Of a stretch of 48,083 nucleotides of DNA, positions 3,001 to 46,420 are shown piece after piece. The stretch spans positions 1 through 48,083 of the forward strand of contig CAZNUU010000006.1 in NCBI GenBank assembly GCA_964576615.1. The letters are read 5' to 3'. How positions within the stretch are numbered: the first letter of the stretch is position 1; each line of letters opens with the position of its first letter. Source of the DNA: an uncultured Candidatus Saccharibacteria bacterium. Its GTDB lineage: Bacteria; Patescibacteriota; Minisyncoccia; Phycocordibacterales; DATDWN01. The notes beneath the pieces were generated by a model, which saw only the letters and a list, made by a program, of their open reading frames with translations, did no database searches and was not told the origin of the DNA. The position numbers and the translations under genes are program-made.

Positions 3001-6000
3001 TAGTTGTGCCTGTTCCTCCGAAGTATCCGTAGTTTGCAGAGATTCCAGTTGTAGAAGCATTTCCATTTAGAAGAACGAGAGACGTTGTTGCTGACTGGCC
3101 TGCGGCTGGATGAGTAAATGGATCAGTGATAAAAGCTCGATCATTGTTAAACCATGAAAGTTGAATTGAGGATGATGCAATTGTATTAACTTGACCTGTT
3201 GAACCTGTGTAAGCAAAGCCTTGAGATAGTGATGAGAGATAAAGTGATGAGGAGAATGTAGATGATGCTGTAGAGAAGAGACCGTTGAAGCCGATGACTG
3301 TTGAGGTTGAGTTGTAACCTGTGTTAACAGTAAATGGAAATCCGAAGTTAGAGTAATCAGATCCAGCTGTTGCCGGCAAAATATTGCCATTGGAATCCGT
3401 CTTAAGAAGTGATCCAGTAATTCCTGTAATAGCTAGCCTGGATGTTGTCGCATTTGTTGCAAGAAGTGTTGGGAAAGTGGATGTTGCTGTTGTAGTCGCA
3501 GTAAAATATGAACTTACAATCTGTCCGACCACAGAGAGTGGAGCGTATGGTGATGTAGTTCCGATTCCCAAATTACCCAGGAAGTAGGAGTTGTTTGTTG
3601 TGGTAGAAATTAATGACCCAACCGTAAGCTGGGAACCGGTGGCAATGAGTTGAGTACCCGCTGAATTTGAAACAACAATCGAATTCCCTGCAAAGGAAGT
3701 TGCATTCGTTCCACCCTTAGCTACGCTCAGGGTACCAGTGATAGTGGAAAGGGTTGTAGTACTTTGCCAGGTTGGTACTCCGTTAACTAGTGCTAAGACT
3801 TGGCCGTCGGTACCGGCAGATGTTGTGGAGATTGCACCTATACCATTTCCAAGAAGAACTGTGTTGGATTGAAGGGATGCCCAACCTGTGCCACCATAAA
3901 CAACTCCGATTGTCGTAGTAGCAGATACAACTCCGTTGTTTGCTTGGAGCGGACCGTTGAGAGATCCTACCGTTAGACCACCATTAAACGTATTTGAATT
4001 TGTAAATGTATTAGATGAGTATGTTTTTGGAATTGTGGAACTTCCGTTTACAAAAGACTGAACTCTGGCATCTGTGTAGTAAAGATTTGAACCTTCAGCA
4101 ACATTTGTTGTAAGTAAACCCAAAGATGAAGTTGCGATTTGCTGATACCCTGTGCCGGCGTAATTTCCCAAAAGAACTCCTGCAGCTGTTGGGGAAGAAA
4201 TATTTGTTCCACCTCTAGCGACAGAAAGTACTCCCGTCCAGCCAGGTGCAAATGTGTGAACATCACCTGACGATGTGATTGTGAGTTGAATGTTTGCATC
4301 CGATGTTGTTGCAAATGTTTGAGATGACCCGTTTTGGAAAGAAGAGTACTGTGCACCTAAAGCAGTGATACCTCCGCCAGCTCCTGCATCTGCTCCACAA
4401 CCAAATTTCCCAGTTGCAGAATTCCAGATCAATTTATCCGAAGAACTAGAACAAGATGTTAGACCTGCACCAAAAATATATCCTGAATTCAGATCAAGAC
4501 CCCGAACAATACTTAGTCCGCCGTTAAATGTAGATGTTGCTGTTGTTGTAGTGGCTGTGATGTACGAAGATACAATTTGACCAGAGACAGAAAGTGGAGC
4601 ATACGGCGATGTCGTTCCGATGCCCAATCTAGAGTTTGTACTATCCCAAATAAAATTATCCGAACCAGCTAAAGTTCCACCATTGTTAAACTGTACATCT
4701 CCATTTGAACCTCCAGGTGTACCGCTGCCACCGCCGGTACCTAAACATGTTCCGTTAACAGAAACACAACCACTGGTTATGTTAATTCCCCCCGCAAAAG
4801 TTGAGGTAGAGTTGTTTGTGACATTTAGAGTAGTAGCGGTAATAGCGCTGTTACTAACTGAACCGCCACTTATTGATGGATTATTTATAACCGTATTGTT
4901 TAACTGATCGATTCTTTGGCTTCCTGCAATCTCTTGGTAAATATTGGTGACAGAGCCCCCACTTCCAGTCGAAAGTGAGTAGAATTTCGACATTATGTTG
5001 TTGTTGAATTCTTGAAGTCTTGCCTCTAGTTCTGTTTTTGTAACTGCATAATTAGCCGGTCTCTCAATTATTCTTTCAATTACATTCGTTGTATTTATTA
5101 TTGTTGGCTGAGAAGAAATTGTGTTTTGAGCCACAACTTTTGTCGGTGTGGAAGTTGGAGATTTGGGAATATTTTTTGTTTGATTCTCAGTGGTAGCAAC
5201 ATAAGTCGTGTTAATAATATTTGGAGTTGAATTAAATAGTCCAGCAATCGGAAGATAGATTGCTCTTTCAAACCAATTATTTACAGTTCGATAAACTACG
5301 AGTCCAGAATGATCGATTGCATTCAAATCATCACCCGCACCAGTTGCAACTGCTGCAGTTAAGTTTCTTGATTTATTTTGAAAATAATTATTTGCATAAG
5401 AGGCACCACCGAGTGAATCCGATACAAAAGCTAAAAATCTAGTACTACCGTTTGAAAGGGAAGTGCTCAAATTAATTCTGCTCCCATCTACAAATTTTTT
5501 GTCTTGAAGCGATAATTTATCTAGAGTCCCTAAAATATATGCGGGTGGATTTTTTAATGCAGCGACTCCCTGGTTAACAAAAGCAAAACTGACTTCGTTT
5601 AACCTGTCTCCAAAACTTATGTAACCATTTTTTAGCCTATCTGAATAAAAACCAATGAGACCATCTGCTGCACTGTAAAGGTCATGTGGAGAATTGCTTA
5701 TACTCTCTGAGACATTTGAAAGACTGAGGTTCTTAGGACTAAAATCACTCGAAACTTTAGCAAATGAACTTTTAACTTCTGAGAGACCTTGGGGGAACGA
5801 CGTTAAGCTGTCTTTTATGGAAATAGCTCCTATAGCCAAGATAAGACCTATGGTTAGGGGTAAAAATTTACTAGAAAGACTATAGTCAAAACCAAACAGT
5901 GACTCGTGAATTACTTGCGATGCCCTAGGTAGGATCTTCTTTTCAGGTAATTCAACTTTTACTGACTGTGTAATTTGCTTACCACTTTCCTGTACTGGAG

Positions 6001-6232
6001 CCTGTGTACTGGATCTGCCGTAAAAATTCTGAGAAAAATCGAATGTGGTTGGGGAATTCTTATACTCTCGGATCGATTCCTCATTTACGTACCATGTGTG
6101 GCCTACCCTTCTAGCTAAAATCTTTTTACTTCTGCATAGTTGACCGATGTAATCTTTTGAGTAGCCCGTAAGAGAGCTAGCTTCCTTAGCTGGAATATAT
6201 TTTTTGTTGTCAAAAAATAGATCAGAACCCAT
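1..6232 (-). CDS. Giant surface/fibre-like repeat protein with N-terminal HTH (MerR/excisionase-like) and TM anchor; 3' end lies outside the window (>=2077 aa)
   Basis: ATG at 6232 gives MGSDLFFDNKKYIPAKEASSLTGYSKDYIGQLCRSKKILARRVGHTWYVNEESI; hydrophobic FLPLTIGLILAIGAISI near 5815-5870; the same frame reads sensibly at ~1800 and at 2-60 (GFGTTTVRGLNISAQAT). The ORF track has no call in this frame, consistent with no stop inside the window. Confidence 0.9.
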   Translation of the reverse strand, partial: MGSDLFFDNKKYIPAKEASSLTGYSKDYIGQLCRSKKILARRVGHTWYVNEESIREYKNSPTTFDFSQNFYGRSSTQAPVQESGKQITQSVKVELPEKKILPRASQVIHESLFGFDYSLSSKFLPLTIGLILAIGAISIKDSLTSFPQGLSEVKSSFAKVSSDFSPKNLSLSNVSESISNSPHDLYSAADGLIGFYSDRLKNGYISFGDRLNEVSFAFVNQGVAALKNPPAYILGTLDKLSLQDKKFVDGSRINLSTSLSNGSTRFLAFVSDSLGGASYANNYFQNKSRNLTAAVATGAGDDLNAIDHSGLVVYRTVNNWFERAIYLPIAGLFNSTPNIINTTYVATTENQTKNIPKSPTSTPTKVVAQNTISSQPTIINTTNVIERIIERPANYAVTKTELEARLQEFNNNIMSKFYSLSTGSGGSVTNIYQEIAGSQRIDQLNNTVINNPSISGGSVSNSAITATTLNVTNNSTSTFAGGINITSGCVSVNGTCLGTGGGSGTPGGSNGDVQFNNGGTLAGSDNFIWDSTNSRLGIGTTSPYAPLSVSGQIVSSYITATTTTATSTFNGGLSIVRGLDLNSGYIFGAGLTSCSSSSDKLIWNSATGKFGCGADAGAGGGITALGAQYSSFQNGSSQTFATTSDANIQLTITSSGDVHTFAPGWTGVLSVARGGTNISSPTAAGVLLGNYAGTGYQQIATSSLGLLTTNVAEGSNLYYTDARVQSFVNGSSTIPKTYSSNTFTNSNTFNGGLTVGSLNGPLQANNGVVSATTTIGVVYGGTGWASLQSNTVLLGNGIGAISTTSAGTDGQVLALVNGVPTWQSTTTLSTITGTLSVAKGGTNATSFAGNSIVVSNSAGTQLIATGSQLTVGSLISTTTNNSYFLGNLGIGTTSPYAPLSVVGQIVSSYFTATTTATSTFPTLLATNATTSRLAITGITGSLLKTDSNGNILPATAGSDYSNFGFPFTVNTGYNSTSTVIGFNGLFSTASSTFSSSLYLSSLSQGFAYTGSTGQVNTIASSSIQLSWFNNDRAFITDPFTHPAAGQSATTSLVLLNGNASTTGISANYGYFGGTGTTTIDQTGRITFAYSSSTVYSSFASASSTNEFAGTLTLGGSLNGPLQAVNGLVSASSTLAANVGGTGWSNIQANAVLLGNGTQRLSTTSAGTDGQVLALVNGVPTWQSTTTLSTITGTLSVAKGGTNATSFAANSIITSDANGTTLIATGSQLTVGSLISTSTNTSYFLGKLGVGTTTPWANLSVNQSAGDTGFAVGSSSGTSFLVDKNGSVGVGLATLSNKFAVEGNSGAVATPLALFRDDFTTSGSNQNYVVGIGRENNNVAAWYLGTDGNSNSVLATNNSDWRLGHDRSGTFYEDITIRATDTTGNAYVGIGTTTPFYALTIASSSANIRPQLSLSAGAGFGQVTFRNDGTNFYISTTTVAGTSTTSISAFEIALSGFGTTTVRGLNISGQATSTSNVGFNLTGGCFAVGGTCIGSGAGTLTALGSGYATTTGSAITFSTTTTSFNGLTFGQTIVPTASALTFTPTISGLLTVAGGGTGWSTIQSNTVLLGNGTGAISTTSAGTDGQVLALVNGVPTWQATTTLSTISGTLAVSKGGTNATSFAGNSIVVSNSAGTALVATGSQLTVGSLISTTTSSSYFSGNLGIGTTTPFTFLQISSTTASATFKPQLALSDFSAGANLKHWTISSQGGSLYIATSSDTYSTSTITALTINSNGIISLGLALPESSGGTNQTTYTKGDILYASANNVLAKLPASVDGLVLKLQSGVPSWQTDLTTGGGGGSTAWSTTSDSLAIYPTNTANVILFGTNATSTTGNIFEVLGNSLFRGNASTTMLSAYRAYFGGTATSTFDNAGVLTLASALAVGSGGTGWANLQSNTVLLGNGAGKIATTSAGTDGQVLALVNGVPTWQSTTTLSTITGTLSVAKGGTNATSFAANSIITSDANGTTLVATTSNYFTVSSFISTSSILNSYSLNNWTGFGTSTPQYLLTLASSTAPQLSLSASSGVAQWVLRNAGGDLFLSTTTIAGTATTSISALTISGSGFGTTTVRGLNISAQAT
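300..3900 (-). repeat. Four ~270-290 nt intragenic repeats (~300-590, ~1290-1580, ~2530-2820, ~3610-3900)
   Basis: Each encodes GGTGW...GNG...SAGTDGQVLALVNGVPTWQ.TTTLSTI.GTL.V.KGGTNATSFA.NSI; ACTTGGCCGTCGGTACCGGCAGATGTTGTGGAGATTGCACCT is identical at ~1476 and ~3798. Confidence 0.9.
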
Positions 6233-41629: not shown

Positions 41630-42373
41630 ATGTTTGAAAAATATCTCAAAGATATTGGTCTAAGTGATAAAGAAGCAGCCGTCTATATTACCCTCCTTTC
41701 TTTCGATAAGGCACTTATTGCTGAAATTTCTACAAAAGCCAAGGTTAAACGTCCAACCACATACGTTATTTTGGAATCCCTTCAGAAAAAGGGTCTAGTT
41801 AGTGAAACAAATATCGGCAAAAAAACTTTTTATATGGCTGAACCCCCTGAGAAACTAGACATGTTTGTGGAAAGACAGATCCATTTGTTGGAAGAAAATA
41901 AAAAAAGCTTAGATGTAGTCATTCCCCAGCTTAAAGGAATGCAAAGAGAACAGGGGGAAAAACCTATGGTCCAATTCTATGATGGCAAAGAAGGTGTTTT
42001 AAGCTCTAATTATGATACGTTTGCCAAAAAATTTGATAGTGAGCCGGTTTATATTGTCTACTCTAGAGATTTAGTTAAAGACGTCTTTACTGAAAAAGAA
42101 TCTAAAGTTATGAGGGATAAACGAATATCTATGGGGATTAAATCTAAAGCCCTGTATAACTCCCATGAAGGTGAAAGGCCATCTGATGAAACTGGTTATA
42201 GATTAAAAATCGATGAAGCCAAGTATCCAATCAACAGTGATGTAACAATATATGGGGATCAAGTCAAAATTGCAGTTTTTGGTAAAAGAATTTCCGCAAT
42301 CTCAATTAAAAGTAAAGAATTCGCTGATACCCTCAAAAGTTTAATAAATTTTATCTTCGATAATAAAAAATAG
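41630..42373 (+). CDS. TrmB-family transcriptional regulator
   Basis: GLSDKEAAVYITLL...RPTTY.IL.SL..KGLV winged HTH plus C-terminal effector-like domain. Confidence 0.9.
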   Translation: MFEKYLKDIGLSDKEAAVYITLLSFDKALIAEISTKAKVKRPTTYVILESLQKKGLVSETNIGKKTFYMAEPPEKLDMFVERQIHLLEENKKSLDVVIPQLKGMQREQGEKPMVQFYDGKEGVLSSNYDTFAKKFDSEPVYIVYSRDLVKDVFTEKESKVMRDKRISMGIKSKALYNSHEGERPSDETGYRLKIDEAKYPINSDVTIYGDQVKIAVFGKRISAISIKSKEFADTLKSLINFIFDNKK

Positions 42374-42384
42374 AATAAATAATT

Positions 42385-42416
42385 TATGCCGTGGCGACTA
42401 TTGTCGCCACGGCATA
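42385..42416. terminator. Strong hairpin, probable terminator for convergent transcripts
   Basis: 14 bp perfect stem TATGCCGTGGCGAC-TATT-GTCGCCACGGCATA. Confidence 0.75.
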
Positions 42417-42672
42417 CGCCCACCGATCACTCTCGGATGGGTCAGAGCAGAGAAAACACTTCTTCTTGCGTCGGCGCACCACTACTGGTTCGTCGAAGTC
42501 CGAGATGATCCCTCTTTGCATCGCTTCCGGGCGGACGCAGCCCCTTTTTCAGTCGTGCATGACATTTTCTCCTCGACTCCTATCGACTGGACTGACCGCC
42601 AAGCCTTTACCCGGGGCACCAATTTCACCCCGGGCCAGCCCGCTACGCATCAGTCGTTCATAGAACCTCCTA
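42417..42672 (-). other. GC-rich short transcription unit (structured sRNA or micro-ORFs)
   Basis: Lies between a minus-strand promoter and the 42385 hairpin; GGAGG precedes ATG AAC GAC TGA; nested stems GACTGA/TCAGTC and CCCGGGG/CCCCGGG; no convincing long ORF. Confidence 0.45.
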
Positions 42673-42678
42673 CATATA

Positions 42679-42706
42679 AGTATATACCCTATCTTTTATT
42701 TGTCAA
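42679..42706 (-). promoter_or_regulatory. Sigma70-type promoter
   Basis: Minus strand TTGACA-16 nt-TATACT. Confidence 0.7.
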
Positions 42707-42848
42707 ATCCAAGTGACACAAGCATCATGGTTGTTTTAAAGAAGTCCGATTTTAATTTAAAAAGTCAGACTAAATTAATTTAATTAATCAAAATATGGCT
42801 TTAAATAAGGCCATATTTTTGTATATAATGAGAAAATGTCAAAACAAC

Positions 42849-42877
42849 TTGACAAAATAACGAAACGGGTATATACT
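42849..42877 (+). promoter_or_regulatory. Near-consensus sigma70 promoter of the large ncRNA
   Basis: TTGACA-17 nt-TATACT with AT-rich upstream sequence; predicted start about 42884. Confidence 0.85.
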
Positions 42878-42883
42878 GTCCGT

Positions 42884-44135
42884 GTAAGTTGATATGAGGT
42901 CGCTGATTCAACTGCGAGGCAACCGTCCAGATTATTATCACGGACCCGCAAATCAGTAAATTTCAGAGAACTTAAGGTTTTTTACAAGATGGAAGGGGCT
43001 AGCTAATAACTATCCTCTCCACTTAAGAAGATTTAAGAAGTCTTTTTAAGTGGGGGTGGGTAGGATGCCAAATATAACGCAGATGGGGATCTCCTAGCGT
43101 TGAGCGACGTTAGGAGTTCTGCGGGCCAGGGGCGTCGAGTACGCCAAGGCCAACCCAAAATGGGACCGGTTGGACGGAGTCCACCGTGGGCTGACGCCTC
43201 GGTTCGCTCCCGAGTGCTAGGTCCCAGTCCAATCCCATCCCCACGTTCTTTACAACATGGTGAATCCGCGAGGGCCACCATTGCTCCTAATCAGAGCCGG
43301 GATGTTATCGCAGTCCTGGGAACAGAAAATGCATACGCGGAGAGGCTAAATCCGAGAGAACAAAGAACTAGGCTAGCCACCTTAACGGCCTGTTGTGAAG
43401 TGTGTGCTTCACCTGATGAGATCAAAAGATCGAAACAGAAGTTTTTTGAAAAAAATTCCAACAATGCTCACAGAGCGTATTCGGAACTCAAATCAAACTT
43501 GAGAGTCGAATATGCTCTGGAGAGCATGACAGTCCAGCAATGGACGATTTGTCTCGGCCAGCACGTCCGAGGCAGGGTATGCCGAAAGGTAAATCCTAAT
43601 CTCCACGGAAGTGGTTATGAGTAGGGTCTACCAAACCCGAGGTCTCTTAGCCAATTTCGCTTTTCACGCTTGGCAGTGTGGAAGGAGTCAGAAGACAAGC
43701 AGATCCGAGGGAGTTGCATCCCGAAGGGTTTCTGCCGAAAGGCAGGAGCGTGCCAACGCCTGTAAGTTGGAAAGTCAGTGGCTAAGCTTAGGGGTCGCAA
43801 GCCTCTTTGTGAATGCCTCTCCCATTACTGACAAAGTGCTGCAGCAAACTTTCAAAGTTTGCCAAGGTAAAGATGGGGGAAAGTTGTGAGCGTAGGGCCA
43901 GGCCCCGTCAGGGGAAGTGAGGATTTGACCCCTCACATGCGAAAAGCCCCGGCCAGGGTGGATCGCAATAAGCTCACAATGGAGCCGCAAGGCAAATCGG
44001 GCAACCGGATACCTCATAAGGGTGCAGGTTGTGGTCAAAAGAGTGAACCGGTGGCAAACCGGTGGTAAAAGCGAGGGGTCACCCTTGCAAACTCACTCAC
44101 GGGGCGAACGTTGACCTTATGTCGCTCCACTTAGT
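42884..44135 (+). ncRNA. Large (~1.25 kb) ornate structured ncRNA with GOLLD-like 3' domain
   Basis: No credible ORF or RBS; dense helices (43646-43653/43779-43786, 43818-43825/43873-43880, 43884-43891/43972-43979, 44041-44046/44093-44098), many GNRA loops, 5'/3' end complementarity. The GOLLD assignment rests on remembered motif order and is unverified. Confidence 0.75.
43390..43438 (+). ncRNA. Type III hammerhead ribozyme, predicted cleavage after GUU (43394)
   Basis: CTGT-T, stem I GTGAAG/CTTCAC (loop TGTGTG), core CTGATGA (43413-43419), stem II GATC-AAAA-GATC, GAAA, and CAG closing stem III. Confidence 0.9.
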
Positions 44136-44174
44136 TCTTTGCTCTTCTTGAGCTACTCCCAACCAAGGTTGGGT

Positions 44175-44225
44175 TTCCGTAAAAATTTTTAACCAATCGA
44201 AGCTTGCTTGAAAATTTTTACGGGA
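44175..44225 (+). other. Long AU-rich hairpin between the ncRNA and the next gene
   Basis: TTCCGTAAAAATTTTTAA pairs with TTGAAAATTTTTACGGGA (18 bp, two GU pairs); no following U-tract. Confidence 0.6.
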
Positions 44226-44258
44226 ATAGTTCCCGGCAGTTCTTTCCAAGGAGACGTT

Positions 44259-44624
44259 ATGCGTATGAGTGTGATCGCGATTCTGTTCTTCCTTACCTTC
44301 GTCGTAACTCCGGTTCGATCGTCGGCGCAGGAACTCGCTTCGCCCGCCCCTGCCGCTTGCCACGACCCGGCGCCCATCGCCGGCCCCCGCGGCCCTGCCG
44401 GCCCCCGCGGCCCGATCGGGCTCGTGGGTCCCACCGGTCCCGCCGGTGAAGTGCCGGCCTGGTATCTGTGGGTCGTGCTCGGTGCGGCCGGTATCGCCAT
44501 TCTCGCACTCGGTCTTGCAATCGGTGCGTTGTCGAACCGGCCCGCTCCCGCGGCTCCGGCACCGGTGGTAGTCGTGAACTACCCGGGTGCCGCCCAGGCG
44601 CCTGTCGGTCCGCACGGACCGTAA
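44259..44624 (+). CDS. Small collagen-like membrane protein (signal peptide, 8 Gly-X-Y triplets, TM, Pro/Ala tail)
   Basis: RBS AAGGAG before ATG 44259; GPRGPAGPRGPIGLVGPTGPAGEV; TM WYLWVVLGAAGIAILALGLAIGAL; strongly GC-rich codons; 121 aa. Confidence 0.85.
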   Translation: MRMSVIAILFFLTFVVTPVRSSAQELASPAPAACHDPAPIAGPRGPAGPRGPIGLVGPTGPAGEVPAWYLWVVLGAAGIAILALGLAIGALSNRPAPAAPAPVVVVNYPGAAQAPVGPHGP

Positions 44625-44629
44625 GATCT

Positions 44630-45110
44630 TCCGGGAGTACCCGATCCTTGCGCGGGGAAACCGAGGCCTTCTGTGTTGGGCTTTAATACGAACACTCCTT
44701 AAACTTTGGTGGTCAAAAGTTCCGAATCTTTTGATTCGGTTTCCGTCAGAGATTTTTTAAAAAAGAAATTTCTGATGGGGAACGATGGATACACCAGGTC
44801 AAAGCAGGAGAAAGGCGTCGCGTAAGGGGTTCAAGGACCTGAGCTCGCAATGAGCCAGCGAGAAGCCCCGATACGCTGATTACCCGAGCCTCATTCCGGT
44901 AGTAATCGTTTCCCTTCAATTCGCGGTCCAGGCATGTGTGTGCAGATGCCAGAGGACTAGTAGAGTCGCCTTATAAATTCCTAAGGCGGATGATCCCGAG
45001 AGAGATCGAGGGATAACTGGATCGCTACGCGAGTGGCTAAGTCGAATTCCACAAGGAGGTGGCCCCGACTCGCAATGCCAAAGATCCAGACTGCACACGT
45101 TTTTCAGATG
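44630..45110 (+). ncRNA. Second structured non-coding region with predicted pseudoknot (family unknown)
   Basis: Helices 44722-44739, 44777-44786/44905-44914, 45017-45023/45083-45089; hairpin loop 44938-44945 is complementary to 45091-45098. Confidence 0.55.
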
Positions 45111-45118
45111 TTCTTCCA

Positions 45119-45140
45119 AAGCACCGCTCTTGCGGTGCTT
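45119..45140 (+). terminator. Hairpin ending the RNA island, overlapping the next -35
   Basis: AAGCACCGC-TCTT-GCGGTGCTT. Confidence 0.6.
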
Positions 45141-45167
45141 GACTTTATATATAATTCATGGTAGAGT
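45139..45167 (+). promoter_or_regulatory. Sigma70-type promoter
   Basis: TTGACT-17 nt-TAGAGT with extended TG. Confidence 0.6.
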
Positions 45168-45185
45168 TCGAGCAGGAGGTGCCAT

Positions 45186-45392
45186 ATGGCACAGTTTGTG
45201 ATGCTGCCGGGCATGGTTATCGTGCGGTCGTTCTCCGAGGGGGACAAAATCGTGCGGAACGTGCCGGCTCGTCGGGAAACGGAAGTCGATGCCCTGGCCC
45301 ACGCTCTCTGGCTGGATCGCCGGGGGTTTGCAGCCGAGGCCGACGCCTACCTCGACGACTACATCCGGCGCAGTGCCGGGTGCCGACACTGA
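45186..45392 (+). CDS. Small GC-rich hypothetical protein (68 aa)
   Basis: AGGAGG RBS, own promoter and terminator, GC-biased codons. Confidence 0.8.
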   Translation: MAQFVMLPGMVIVRSFSEGDKIVRNVPARRETEVDALAHALWLDRRGFAAEADAYLDDYIRRSAGCRH

Positions 45393-45408
45393 CTCGTTTC
45401 CTCAGGTT

Positions 45409-45445
45409 GACCGTCTCCCCTAAAAAAGGAGACGGTCTTTTGTTT
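45409..45445 (+). terminator. Intrinsic terminator
   Basis: GACCGTCTCC-N9-GGAGACGGTC followed by TTTTGTTT. Confidence 0.85.
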
Positions 45446-45511
45446 ATGTGAAAATATCGTGCGAGCTTTGCTTTGTATAATATTTATTGTGCGACATGCT
45501 AAAATACTTGC

Positions 45512-46420
45512 ATGTCCTCACTTAAAAATCTGAAAACTCAATTTCTGGAATACATTGAGATCGAAAAAGGACGTTCGCTCAAAACAGTTGAAAATTATGA
45601 TCACTATCTTTCTGTATTTCTGGAGTTTTTAAAAAGCGATTCCCCTTCTAGCATTACGGATGACTCGGTTAGAAATTTTAGACTTTGGCTTAACCGTAGA
45701 CCTGCTCACAAATCTGGGCAGACTGTTTCTAGGAAAACTCAAAATTATTATCTTATTGCCTTGCGAGCATTTTTGAAATATTTAGCTAGACAACAAATAA
45801 AAACATTACCAGCGGAAAGGATTGAATTGGCAAAGACATCTGAGCGGGCACTGGATTTGATTACACCCGAGGAATTAAATCGTCTACTTAACTCACCCAA
45901 GGGAAATGATTTGAGATCGCTTCGGGATAAAGCAATTCTTGAGCTTCTTTTTTCAACTGGCCTTCGCTTATCTGAACTTTGTTCCCTCACCAAAGACATC
46001 AACTTAAACTCAGATGAACTCTCTATTCGAGGTAAAGGGGGGAAAATACGAGTGGTTTTTCTTTCGGATAAGGCTAAAAAAATTATTAAAGAGTATTTGA
46101 AGGCACGCAAAGATATGGGCGAGGCACTTTTTATTCCACTTGGCTCAAAAAAGGATAAGGAATCAGAATATAAATTTTTAAACAAGAGATCTGTAGAAAG
46201 AATAGTAAAACACTATGCAGTCAAAGCTGGAATTTCCAAAAAAGTTACGCCCCACACCATGCGTCACATGTTTGCAACTGATTTGCTTTCAAATGGTGCA
46301 GATTTACGTTCAGTGCAGGCCCTGTTGGGTCATTCCAGCATTGTTACAACTCAAATTTATACTCACGTTACCGATAAACATCTTCGCGAAGTTCACAAAA
46401 AATTTCACAACAAGAATTAG
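45512..46420 (+). CDS. XerC/XerD-family tyrosine recombinase
   Basis: TGLRLSEL, GKGGK.R, TPHTMRH.FAT.LL.NGADLRSVQ.LLGH....TTQIYTH. Confidence 0.96.
   Translation: MSSLKNLKTQFLEYIEIEKGRSLKTVENYDHYLSVFLEFLKSDSPSSITDDSVRNFRLWLNRRPAHKSGQTVSRKTQNYYLIALRAFLKYLARQQIKTLPAERIELAKTSERALDLITPEELNRLLNSPKGNDLRSLRDKAILELLFSTGLRLSELCSLTKDINLNSDELSIRGKGGKIRVVFLSDKAKKIIKEYLKARKDMGEALFIPLGSKKDKESEYKFLNKRSVERIVKHYAVKAGISKKVTPHTMRHMFATDLLSNGADLRSVQALLGHSSIVTTQIYTHVTDKHLREVHKKFHNKN

Follow-up and report, generated by a model that had tools for sequence, protein, structure and literature searches.

Positions 44777 to 45105 of the window (the whole stretch of DNA that was analysed, an entire 48-kb contig of 48,083 nucleotides) encode, on the plus strand, a structured non-coding RNA whose family is not catalogued, a conclusion that is well supported by comparison with homologues. 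The genome analysed here (G000; G numbers denote genomes and L numbers loci) is 0.68 Mb long and 93.6% complete. Folding of 44625–45145 gave -193.1 kcal/mol and a z-score of -5.3 for the plus strand, and a z-score of -3.5 for the minus strand. The RNA has a variable P1 domain, followed by hairpins P2/P3, P4, P5, and P6 with an inner domain, and this string of hairpins closes to a ring-like fold in which the P3 loop sequence GUGCAG pairs with CUGCAC directly 3' of P6.

The P1 domain (44777–44914) is closed by a helix of 44777–44786 (GGGGAACGAT) with 44905–44914 (ATCGTTTCCC); its size differs among the homologues, and by eye its closing helix, part of the original prediction, is retained in them with altered sequence. 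P2 (GTCC/GGAC) surrounds hairpin P3 (GGCAT/ATGCC) at 44926–44957, with -15 kcal/mol for the two, and in the final alignment described below all four P2 pairs and four of the five P3 pairs change on both sides. P4 (44966–44989) is variable, with both-sided changes in all seven pairs and 83% of its cells paired, and is missing from two short variants; P5 (44993–45014) changes on both sides in six pairs of six. P6, formed by CTGGATC (45017–45023) and GATCCAG (45083–45089), had been proposed from the sequence and is a real helix by the same measure (7/7 pairs). It encloses an inner domain that contains P7 (45029–45034 with 45068–45073; both-sided changes in three of six pairs), an invariant pairing of GGC (45035–45037) with GCC (45062–45064) and an SD-like AAGGAGGTG at 45053–45061. 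Three variants (G004b, G030b and G272) have other sequence in place of the whole inner domain, and the shortest variant of the RNA is 119 nt long.

Support for these helices comes from an alignment (A4) of 19 distinct homologues with 785 pair cells, which was fitted to the model, and the fit favours the structure. Standard pairs occupy 93.1% of its cells, compared to 77.4% after shuffling and 24–40% in controls with slid partners; 32 of the 44 pairs show changes on both sides, and none of 500 shuffles reaches any of these measures. An earlier sequence set gave the same covariation picture, and RNAalifold, run on a 19-row predecessor (A3) that was likewise fitted to the model, independently returned the same helices (34 pairs, 27 with compensatory changes). 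Homologue search and covariation had been named as a check when the structured RNA was first proposed, and these 19 sequences bear the proposal out. Among them G-U cells (44) outnumber A-C cells (10), which indicates that the RNA is read from the plus strand. A protein-coding explanation is ruled out by stops in all six frames in 12 of the 19 sequences, by the lack of any frame open throughout all 19, and by the compensatory changes in the helices; one frame is open over the core in the seven other copies.

The P3 loop (44936–44945, GTGTGTGCAG) holds GTGCAG at 44940–44945, and the 3' strand of the pseudoknot lies on the plus strand at 45091–45100 (CTGCACACGT), with the core CTGCAC at 45091–45096. 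Ten pairs are possible in this genome, two of them G-U. The six core pairs are formed in all 19 sequences; in 18 of these, the variants G004b and G030b included, the complementary GUGCAG loop and 3' CUGCAC are themselves present, and in the most distant copy, from G272 in another family, they are GUGUAG and CUACAC, a double change from C-G to U-A. The covariation of the pseudoknot amounts to one independent event, support that is real but thin. The near invariance of the pseudoknot beside helices that vary suggests a role for its bases beyond pairing. At four loci, two of which are homologous (G007 (L010), G019 (L012), G030 (L185) and L073), other modules of the same island contain a second GTGCAGTC, which complements eight bases of the 3' tail of the RNA and might serve the tail as an alternative or trans partner; G000 does not conserve it.

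The long-range pseudoknot, the central claim of the original prediction, stands in all 19 homologues, and all of the short sequences on which that prediction was built are in place (GGCAT at 44931–44935, ATGCC at 44946–44950, CTGGATC/GATCCAG, and the 3' strand at 45091–45100). Some of its smaller features are not shared by the family. The second ATGCC, at 45075, suggested as an alternative partner, could form all five pairs with the 5' strand of P3 in only 2 of 13 sequences, the hairpin with a GCGA loop is possible in 4 of 15, and the AGTCG/CGACT stem is confined to this genome (1 of 13); what the inner domain does conserve is the pairing of GCGAGT/ACTCGC plus GGC/GCC. The proposed extent, 44630–45110, holds for the RNA itself and not for its start, since 44630–44776 consists of separate elements: a 3'-UTR-like element, a GC hairpin at 44722–44739 and an AU-rich hairpin at 44740–44782.

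When 61 related genomes were searched with the DNA, segments of the 3-kb region turned up in 16, G000 included, and five copies of its 3' part align with obvious compensatory changes. Pattern scans of genome and viral contigs returned 138 matches, of which four (L073, L076, L096 and L102) are real; the matches of a 16-base pattern on genome contigs are mostly chance sites. In DPANN archaea a 21-base pattern hit one stretch shared by 17 contigs (L023–L095) that is without the family's upstream block, and which we read, at the DNA level, as a coding gene unrelated to the RNA. Three pattern scans of viral contigs gave 18, 0 and 1 stretches and no real member: none of the 18 has the family's upstream conserved block, and the single stretch is GC-rich, has no family motifs and is not recognised by the model. 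The 14 loci from a metagenome scan comprise ten real members and four copies of one unrelated sequence.

All model searches were made with one covariance model (R1), under strict filters and on samples of genomes. In the genus this model found ten matches, divergent copies included, in 8 of 41 genomes, with tandem pairs of the RNA in G004 and G030. In a sample of the order (151 genomes, counting G000) it found the RNA in G000 and in 0 of the 150 others, in a sample of the class (151 genomes) in G000 and G272 only, and in the family of G272 in 3 of 62 genomes (G272, G341 and G374). The distribution of the RNA is patchy, across two families of the class.

No match to a known family lies on the RNA. 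At gathering thresholds Rfam 15 matches nothing in the whole window, at E values up to 10 the region 43500–45600 gives eight chance matches far below threshold, and at E values up to 1 eight homologous loci (21,186 bases) give three matches, none on the RNA, two of which are Hammerhead_3 elsewhere in the islands. The permissive scans otherwise yield chance matches of microRNA type, one of them at an AU-rich hairpin (44729–44794), besides hammerheads elsewhere. The hammerhead core pattern CUGAUGA...GAAA occurs in the region only at 43413 and nowhere in 44630–45110, and no model of the Hammerhead clan (CL00010) matches over the RNA; the pistol model (RF02679) has no match in 43500–45600 at E≤10 or in the eight homologous loci at E≤1. 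The twister, twister-sister, hatchet, HDV-like and glmS models also find nothing, though large insertions could hide a small core from them, and there is no match to the riboswitch classes of Rfam 15, to the RAGATH entries in Rfam, or to the housekeeping RNAs (RNase P, tmRNA, SRP and 6S), with which the patchy, not near-universal, distribution also disagrees. The description of this stretch as a structured RNA of no recognised family thus agrees both with the Rfam scans and with the comparative support for its structure. Within the part of the literature that our search could reach, we found no description of a pseudoknotted non-coding RNA of this kind from CPR bacteria, nor of hammerhead-linked RNA operons in this CPR lineage.

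The RNA lies in an island (42380–45450) with a GC content of 52–57%, compared to about 38% elsewhere, in which credible ORFs are scarce. A tRNA/tmRNA scan found no genes. Nothing similar to 42380–45450 was found in a phage collection, and the island is chromosomal, with no phage genes seen. Just upstream, at 41630–42373 (+), is a gene for a TrmB-like HTH regulator of 247 amino acids (Pfam TrmB, 5.9e-15; PDB TrmBL2, 2.8e-5). By tblastn, such a gene lies 1–5 kb upstream of the RNA and in the same orientation in 11 loci (G000, G004, G007, G017, G030, G062, G063, L073/G341, L157, G272 and G374), that is, in every locus with enough flank, and the linkage persists where protein identity is as low as 30%. 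Close orthologues, with 50% identity or more, are present in 10 of the 41 genomes of the genus, among them seven of the eight that carry the RNA; in the eighth, G019, the contig begins inside the island. The regulator gene is itself accessory. PADLOC and NCBIfam searches of the neighbouring proteins gave only HTH and Xer matches, and an Xer-type (tyrosine) recombinase gene lies 3' of the RNA in G000 and L161 only.

A sigma-70-like promoter, TTGACA-17-TATACT, with 11 of 12 consensus matches is found at 42849–42877 (+), in a region that is conserved in G007, G004, G021 and G017. There is no other strong plus-strand promoter between it and 45139, which makes it the likely transcript start for the RNA. 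The RNA is the final module of the stretch from this promoter to a terminator (about 42885–45140), which also holds a type III hammerhead and three AU-rich hairpins of about 20 bp. The unit is ended by a terminator-type hairpin at 45119–45140 (+), which the next promoter (45139–45167) overlaps; from the single promoter and this hairpin, we infer one transcript of about 2.25 kb. The promoter is one of a divergent pair at 42679–42877, and on the minus strand a GC-rich transcript of about 260 nt is predicted to run back to a bidirectional terminator at 42385–42416.

The hammerhead (43390–43438, +) is a type III ribozyme with a complete core and a 4-bp stem III, and its predicted cut is after 43394. 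It falls below the Rfam thresholds, the only match being to Hammerhead_1 at 15.3 bits; Hammerhead_3 scores in the G062 and G063 islands are 44.9 and 40.6 bits, against a gathering score of 48.5. Stems I and II covary among the copies of related loci, and related islands have one to three hammerhead copies each. Of the 15 loci whose upstream flank is 1 kb or longer, 8 have a hammerhead in the island (G000, G007, G017, G019, L161, L165, G062 and G063), and none is present in G004, G030, L073/G341, L076, L157, G272 and G374.

The AU-rich hairpins lie between modules on the plus strand, at about 43018–43058, 44173–44226 and 44740–44782, with 19–23 bp and z-scores from -4.9 to -6.7. The last of these (about 19–20 bp, -21.4 kcal/mol, z = -5.3) overlaps the first bases of P1 with its 3' arm. 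The arms differ between loci and stay complementary, with G-U pairs on the plus strand, and each hairpin has a GC hairpin before it and a GGGAA-type start after it; here the GC hairpin at 44722–44739 (+) is terminator-like and closes the preceding unit, and the same arrangement is seen in homologues. We take the AU-rich hairpins as candidate RNase III sites, an assumption based solely on their length; the genome does have a gene for RNase III. Weak promoters may also lie inside these AT-rich hairpins. A strict genome-wide scan for TTCC...GGAA hairpins did not recover even the three known ones.

Several other modules of the island deserve mention. The first structured module behind the promoter (43058–43255, +) ends in CCCACGTTCTTT and is probably the "first unassigned structured RNA" of the earlier predictions; in G374 a related module (L183, about 5555–6030, minus strand) directly abuts the pseudoknotted RNA behind a promoter, an arrangement that would reduce a minimal island to regulator, promoter, this module and the pseudoknotted RNA. 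A non-coding block of about 620 nt (43518–44140, +) is 71–82% identical in G007, G019 and G021. It is flanked by two hammerheads in G007 (L010) and G019 (L012), where it would be excised as one RNA; RtcB, a possible circularising ligase, was not found in the 93.6%-complete G000. The ORF at 44259–44624 (+) encodes 121 amino acids at 69% GC, with a signal-like start, a hydrophobic stretch and a short collagen-like Gly-Pro-X run (the Pfam Collagen match is weak and below the cut-off), and is partly conserved in G021. The 3'-UTR-like element 3' of it (44650–44740, +) has two small helices and is 84% identical in G007 and 72% in G010.

The RNA ends in a U-rich tail at 45099–45105 (+), GTTTTTC here and GTTCTTT in most copies. 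In 13 of the 19 copies a hairpin of terminator type comes no more than about 25 nt later, in three (L073, L165 and G374) the RNA leads directly into a U-rich stretch, then an SD and the ATG of an ORF, the three ORFs being unrelated to each other, and in the remaining three something else is found 3' of the RNA. The downstream genes vary by locus, and a general test for a leader, a consistent position before related genes, did not find one. The heptamer GTTCTTT occurs 163 times genome-wide on both strands, compared to about 83 expected, and its sites in the window include 43247, 44145, 44239 and 45099. It is also found 3' of hammerheads and other modules, and it directly precedes the SD in several ORF cassettes, at 44239 and at four further positions.

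The reading we prefer, at a probability of roughly 0.45, is that this is a processed, stand-alone structural RNA, which would fit its candidate processing hairpin on the 5' side, its usual 3' terminator and the lack of a constant downstream gene. The island would be transcribed from 42849–42877 as one RNA of about 2.25 kb ending at 45119–45140, and the hammerhead at 43390–43438, together with RNase III acting at the AU-rich hairpins, would cut this transcript into modules. In the released RNA, P1 would lock the 5' end and the pseudoknot would tie back the 3' end, making the molecule stable on its own. Its conserved single-stranded and junction bases would then serve to bind a partner, either a protein or, via the SD-like AAGGAGGUG, the ribosome; control of one particular gene is not apparent. 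It counts against this reading that some members have the SD-like stretch partly paired and that three variants lack it. Against a simple scaffold, the near-invariant bases of the pseudoknot and junctions are more typical of a catalytic or ligand-binding core, and the three copies that run into a U-rich stretch, SD and ATG fit a 5' leader.

In such a cis-acting leader the pseudoknot, which ends 3–4 nt before the U-rich/SD region, would respond to a ligand, a protein or temperature by controlling either termination or the access of ribosomes, and where a terminator comes next, the copy would have lost its ORF or act by attenuation. The AAGGAG or AGGAG and ATG behind the tails of L073, L165 and G374 are what this predicts, the tail heptamer is common to the SD sites of ORF cassettes, and a near-invariant core with a variable periphery is typical of aptamers. 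We nevertheless regard a leader as unlikely: an ORF comes immediately after only those 3 of 19 copies, the three ORFs being unrelated, terminators follow 13 copies, the next gene has its own promoter in G000 and G063, and by eye no consistent terminator/antiterminator pairing involves the 3' strand of the pseudoknot. On the side of a leader, the ORF cassette at 44221–44261 starts in the same way (a GGGAA hairpin, GTTCTTT and SD) without the RNA. A protective role for the 3' end, in which the pseudoknotted fold blocks 3'-to-5' exonucleases and so shields upstream RNAs or mRNAs, like the exonuclease-resistant pseudoknot rings from the other end, is suggested by the tying of the 3' tail onto the body and by the position of the RNA as the last module before the terminator in the 13 copies. 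It seems improbable, in that only the RNA itself could be protected once the upstream hairpin is cut, G004 and G030 carry the RNA in tandem, ORFs lie behind some copies, and the conserved inner domain would have no role. That the stretch has no function at all, being GC-rich filler or a decayed gene with chance folds, is scarcely credible. GC-rich sequence does fold well unaided and one frame is open over the core in 7 of 19 copies, but compensatory changes in 32 of 44 pairs that no shuffle matches, conservation across two families of the class and six-frame stops in the other 12 copies all argue otherwise.

The near invariance of the pseudoknot and junctions, with a periphery that is variable or replaced and a minimum of 119 nt, is also what a new class of self-cleaving ribozyme, cutting the transcript at its own 5' or 3' edge, might show. 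According to PMC6765202, bacterial self-cleaving ribozymes cluster with each other and with certain genes, a principle that led to twister-sister, hatchet and pistol, and hammerheads do accompany the RNA in 8 of 15 islands. GTTCTTT-like tails follow both hammerheads and this RNA, and a hairpin loop paired to the 3' tail is the layout of pistol. The majority of structured RNAs discovered beside ribozymes are not known to be catalytic. The RNA matches no ribozyme model, seven of the 15 loci lack a hammerhead nearby, no candidate cleavage site can be named, and the candidate RNase III hairpin on the 5' side and the terminator on the 3' side would make self-cleavage needless for producing its ends, so we consider this explanation quite doubtful. 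The stronger version, that the RNA is a new self-cleaving ribozyme class or a ligand-sensing core, with the nearly invariant pseudoknot and junction bases as its active site, which together with the hammerheads would cut a TrmB-controlled, mostly non-coding multi-RNA transcript into separate RNAs, is likewise quite doubtful.

Like processing hairpins for RNase III, which lie between the genes of long phage and rRNA transcripts, the hairpins on which the preferred stand-alone reading partly depends are near-perfect over 19–23 bp and lie exactly between modules, in a genome with an RNase III gene; they differ from the textbook cases in being AU-rich and in the overlap of a 3' arm with the 5' strand of P1, and cleavage here is only predicted. 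Pistol contains a hairpin whose loop pairs, over about 6 bp, with a more 3' strand to form a pseudoknot. The present RNA shares such a loop/3' pseudoknot, with its six pairs in 19 of 19 sequences, but pistol (RF02679) measures about 50 nt, whereas here 100–200 nt and three to five helices lie between the pseudoknot strands and the model does not match. Weinberg et al. in 2015 reportedly used a "RAGATH" approach that gave structured RNA candidates beside hammerhead and twister ribozymes. Our RNA resembles these as a conserved, covarying RNA in hammerhead loci, two of which have a tyrosine recombinase gene; it differs in having no Rfam model match, in its CPR host, in the 7 of 15 loci without a hammerhead, and in that its constant partner is the TrmB-like regulator gene rather than a phage gene. 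Hammerheads clustered around genes in prophage transcripts are described by Perreault et al. 2011 (PMC3088659). The islands share with those clusters several hammerheads within about 2–5 kb and a nearby integrase-type gene, which implies cutting of the transcript, and differ from the prophage case in that the units are mostly non-coding RNAs, the hammerheads are of type III and the locus is chromosomal in a CPR bacterium.

CPR genomes of about 0.7 Mb have little spare room, yet this lineage keeps 2–5 kb that is mostly non-coding, GC-rich and structured, that holds self-cutting ribozymes and that always adjoins one regulator gene. The RNA family within it is well defined: its 19 distinct sequences share a clear secondary structure, and one of them carries a natural compensatory change in its pseudoknot. 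Should the RNA self-cleave or bind a ligand, it would add a new class in this lineage; should it instead be a stable RNA that partners a protein or the ribosome, it would point to RNA-based regulation of accessory, SD-led genes.
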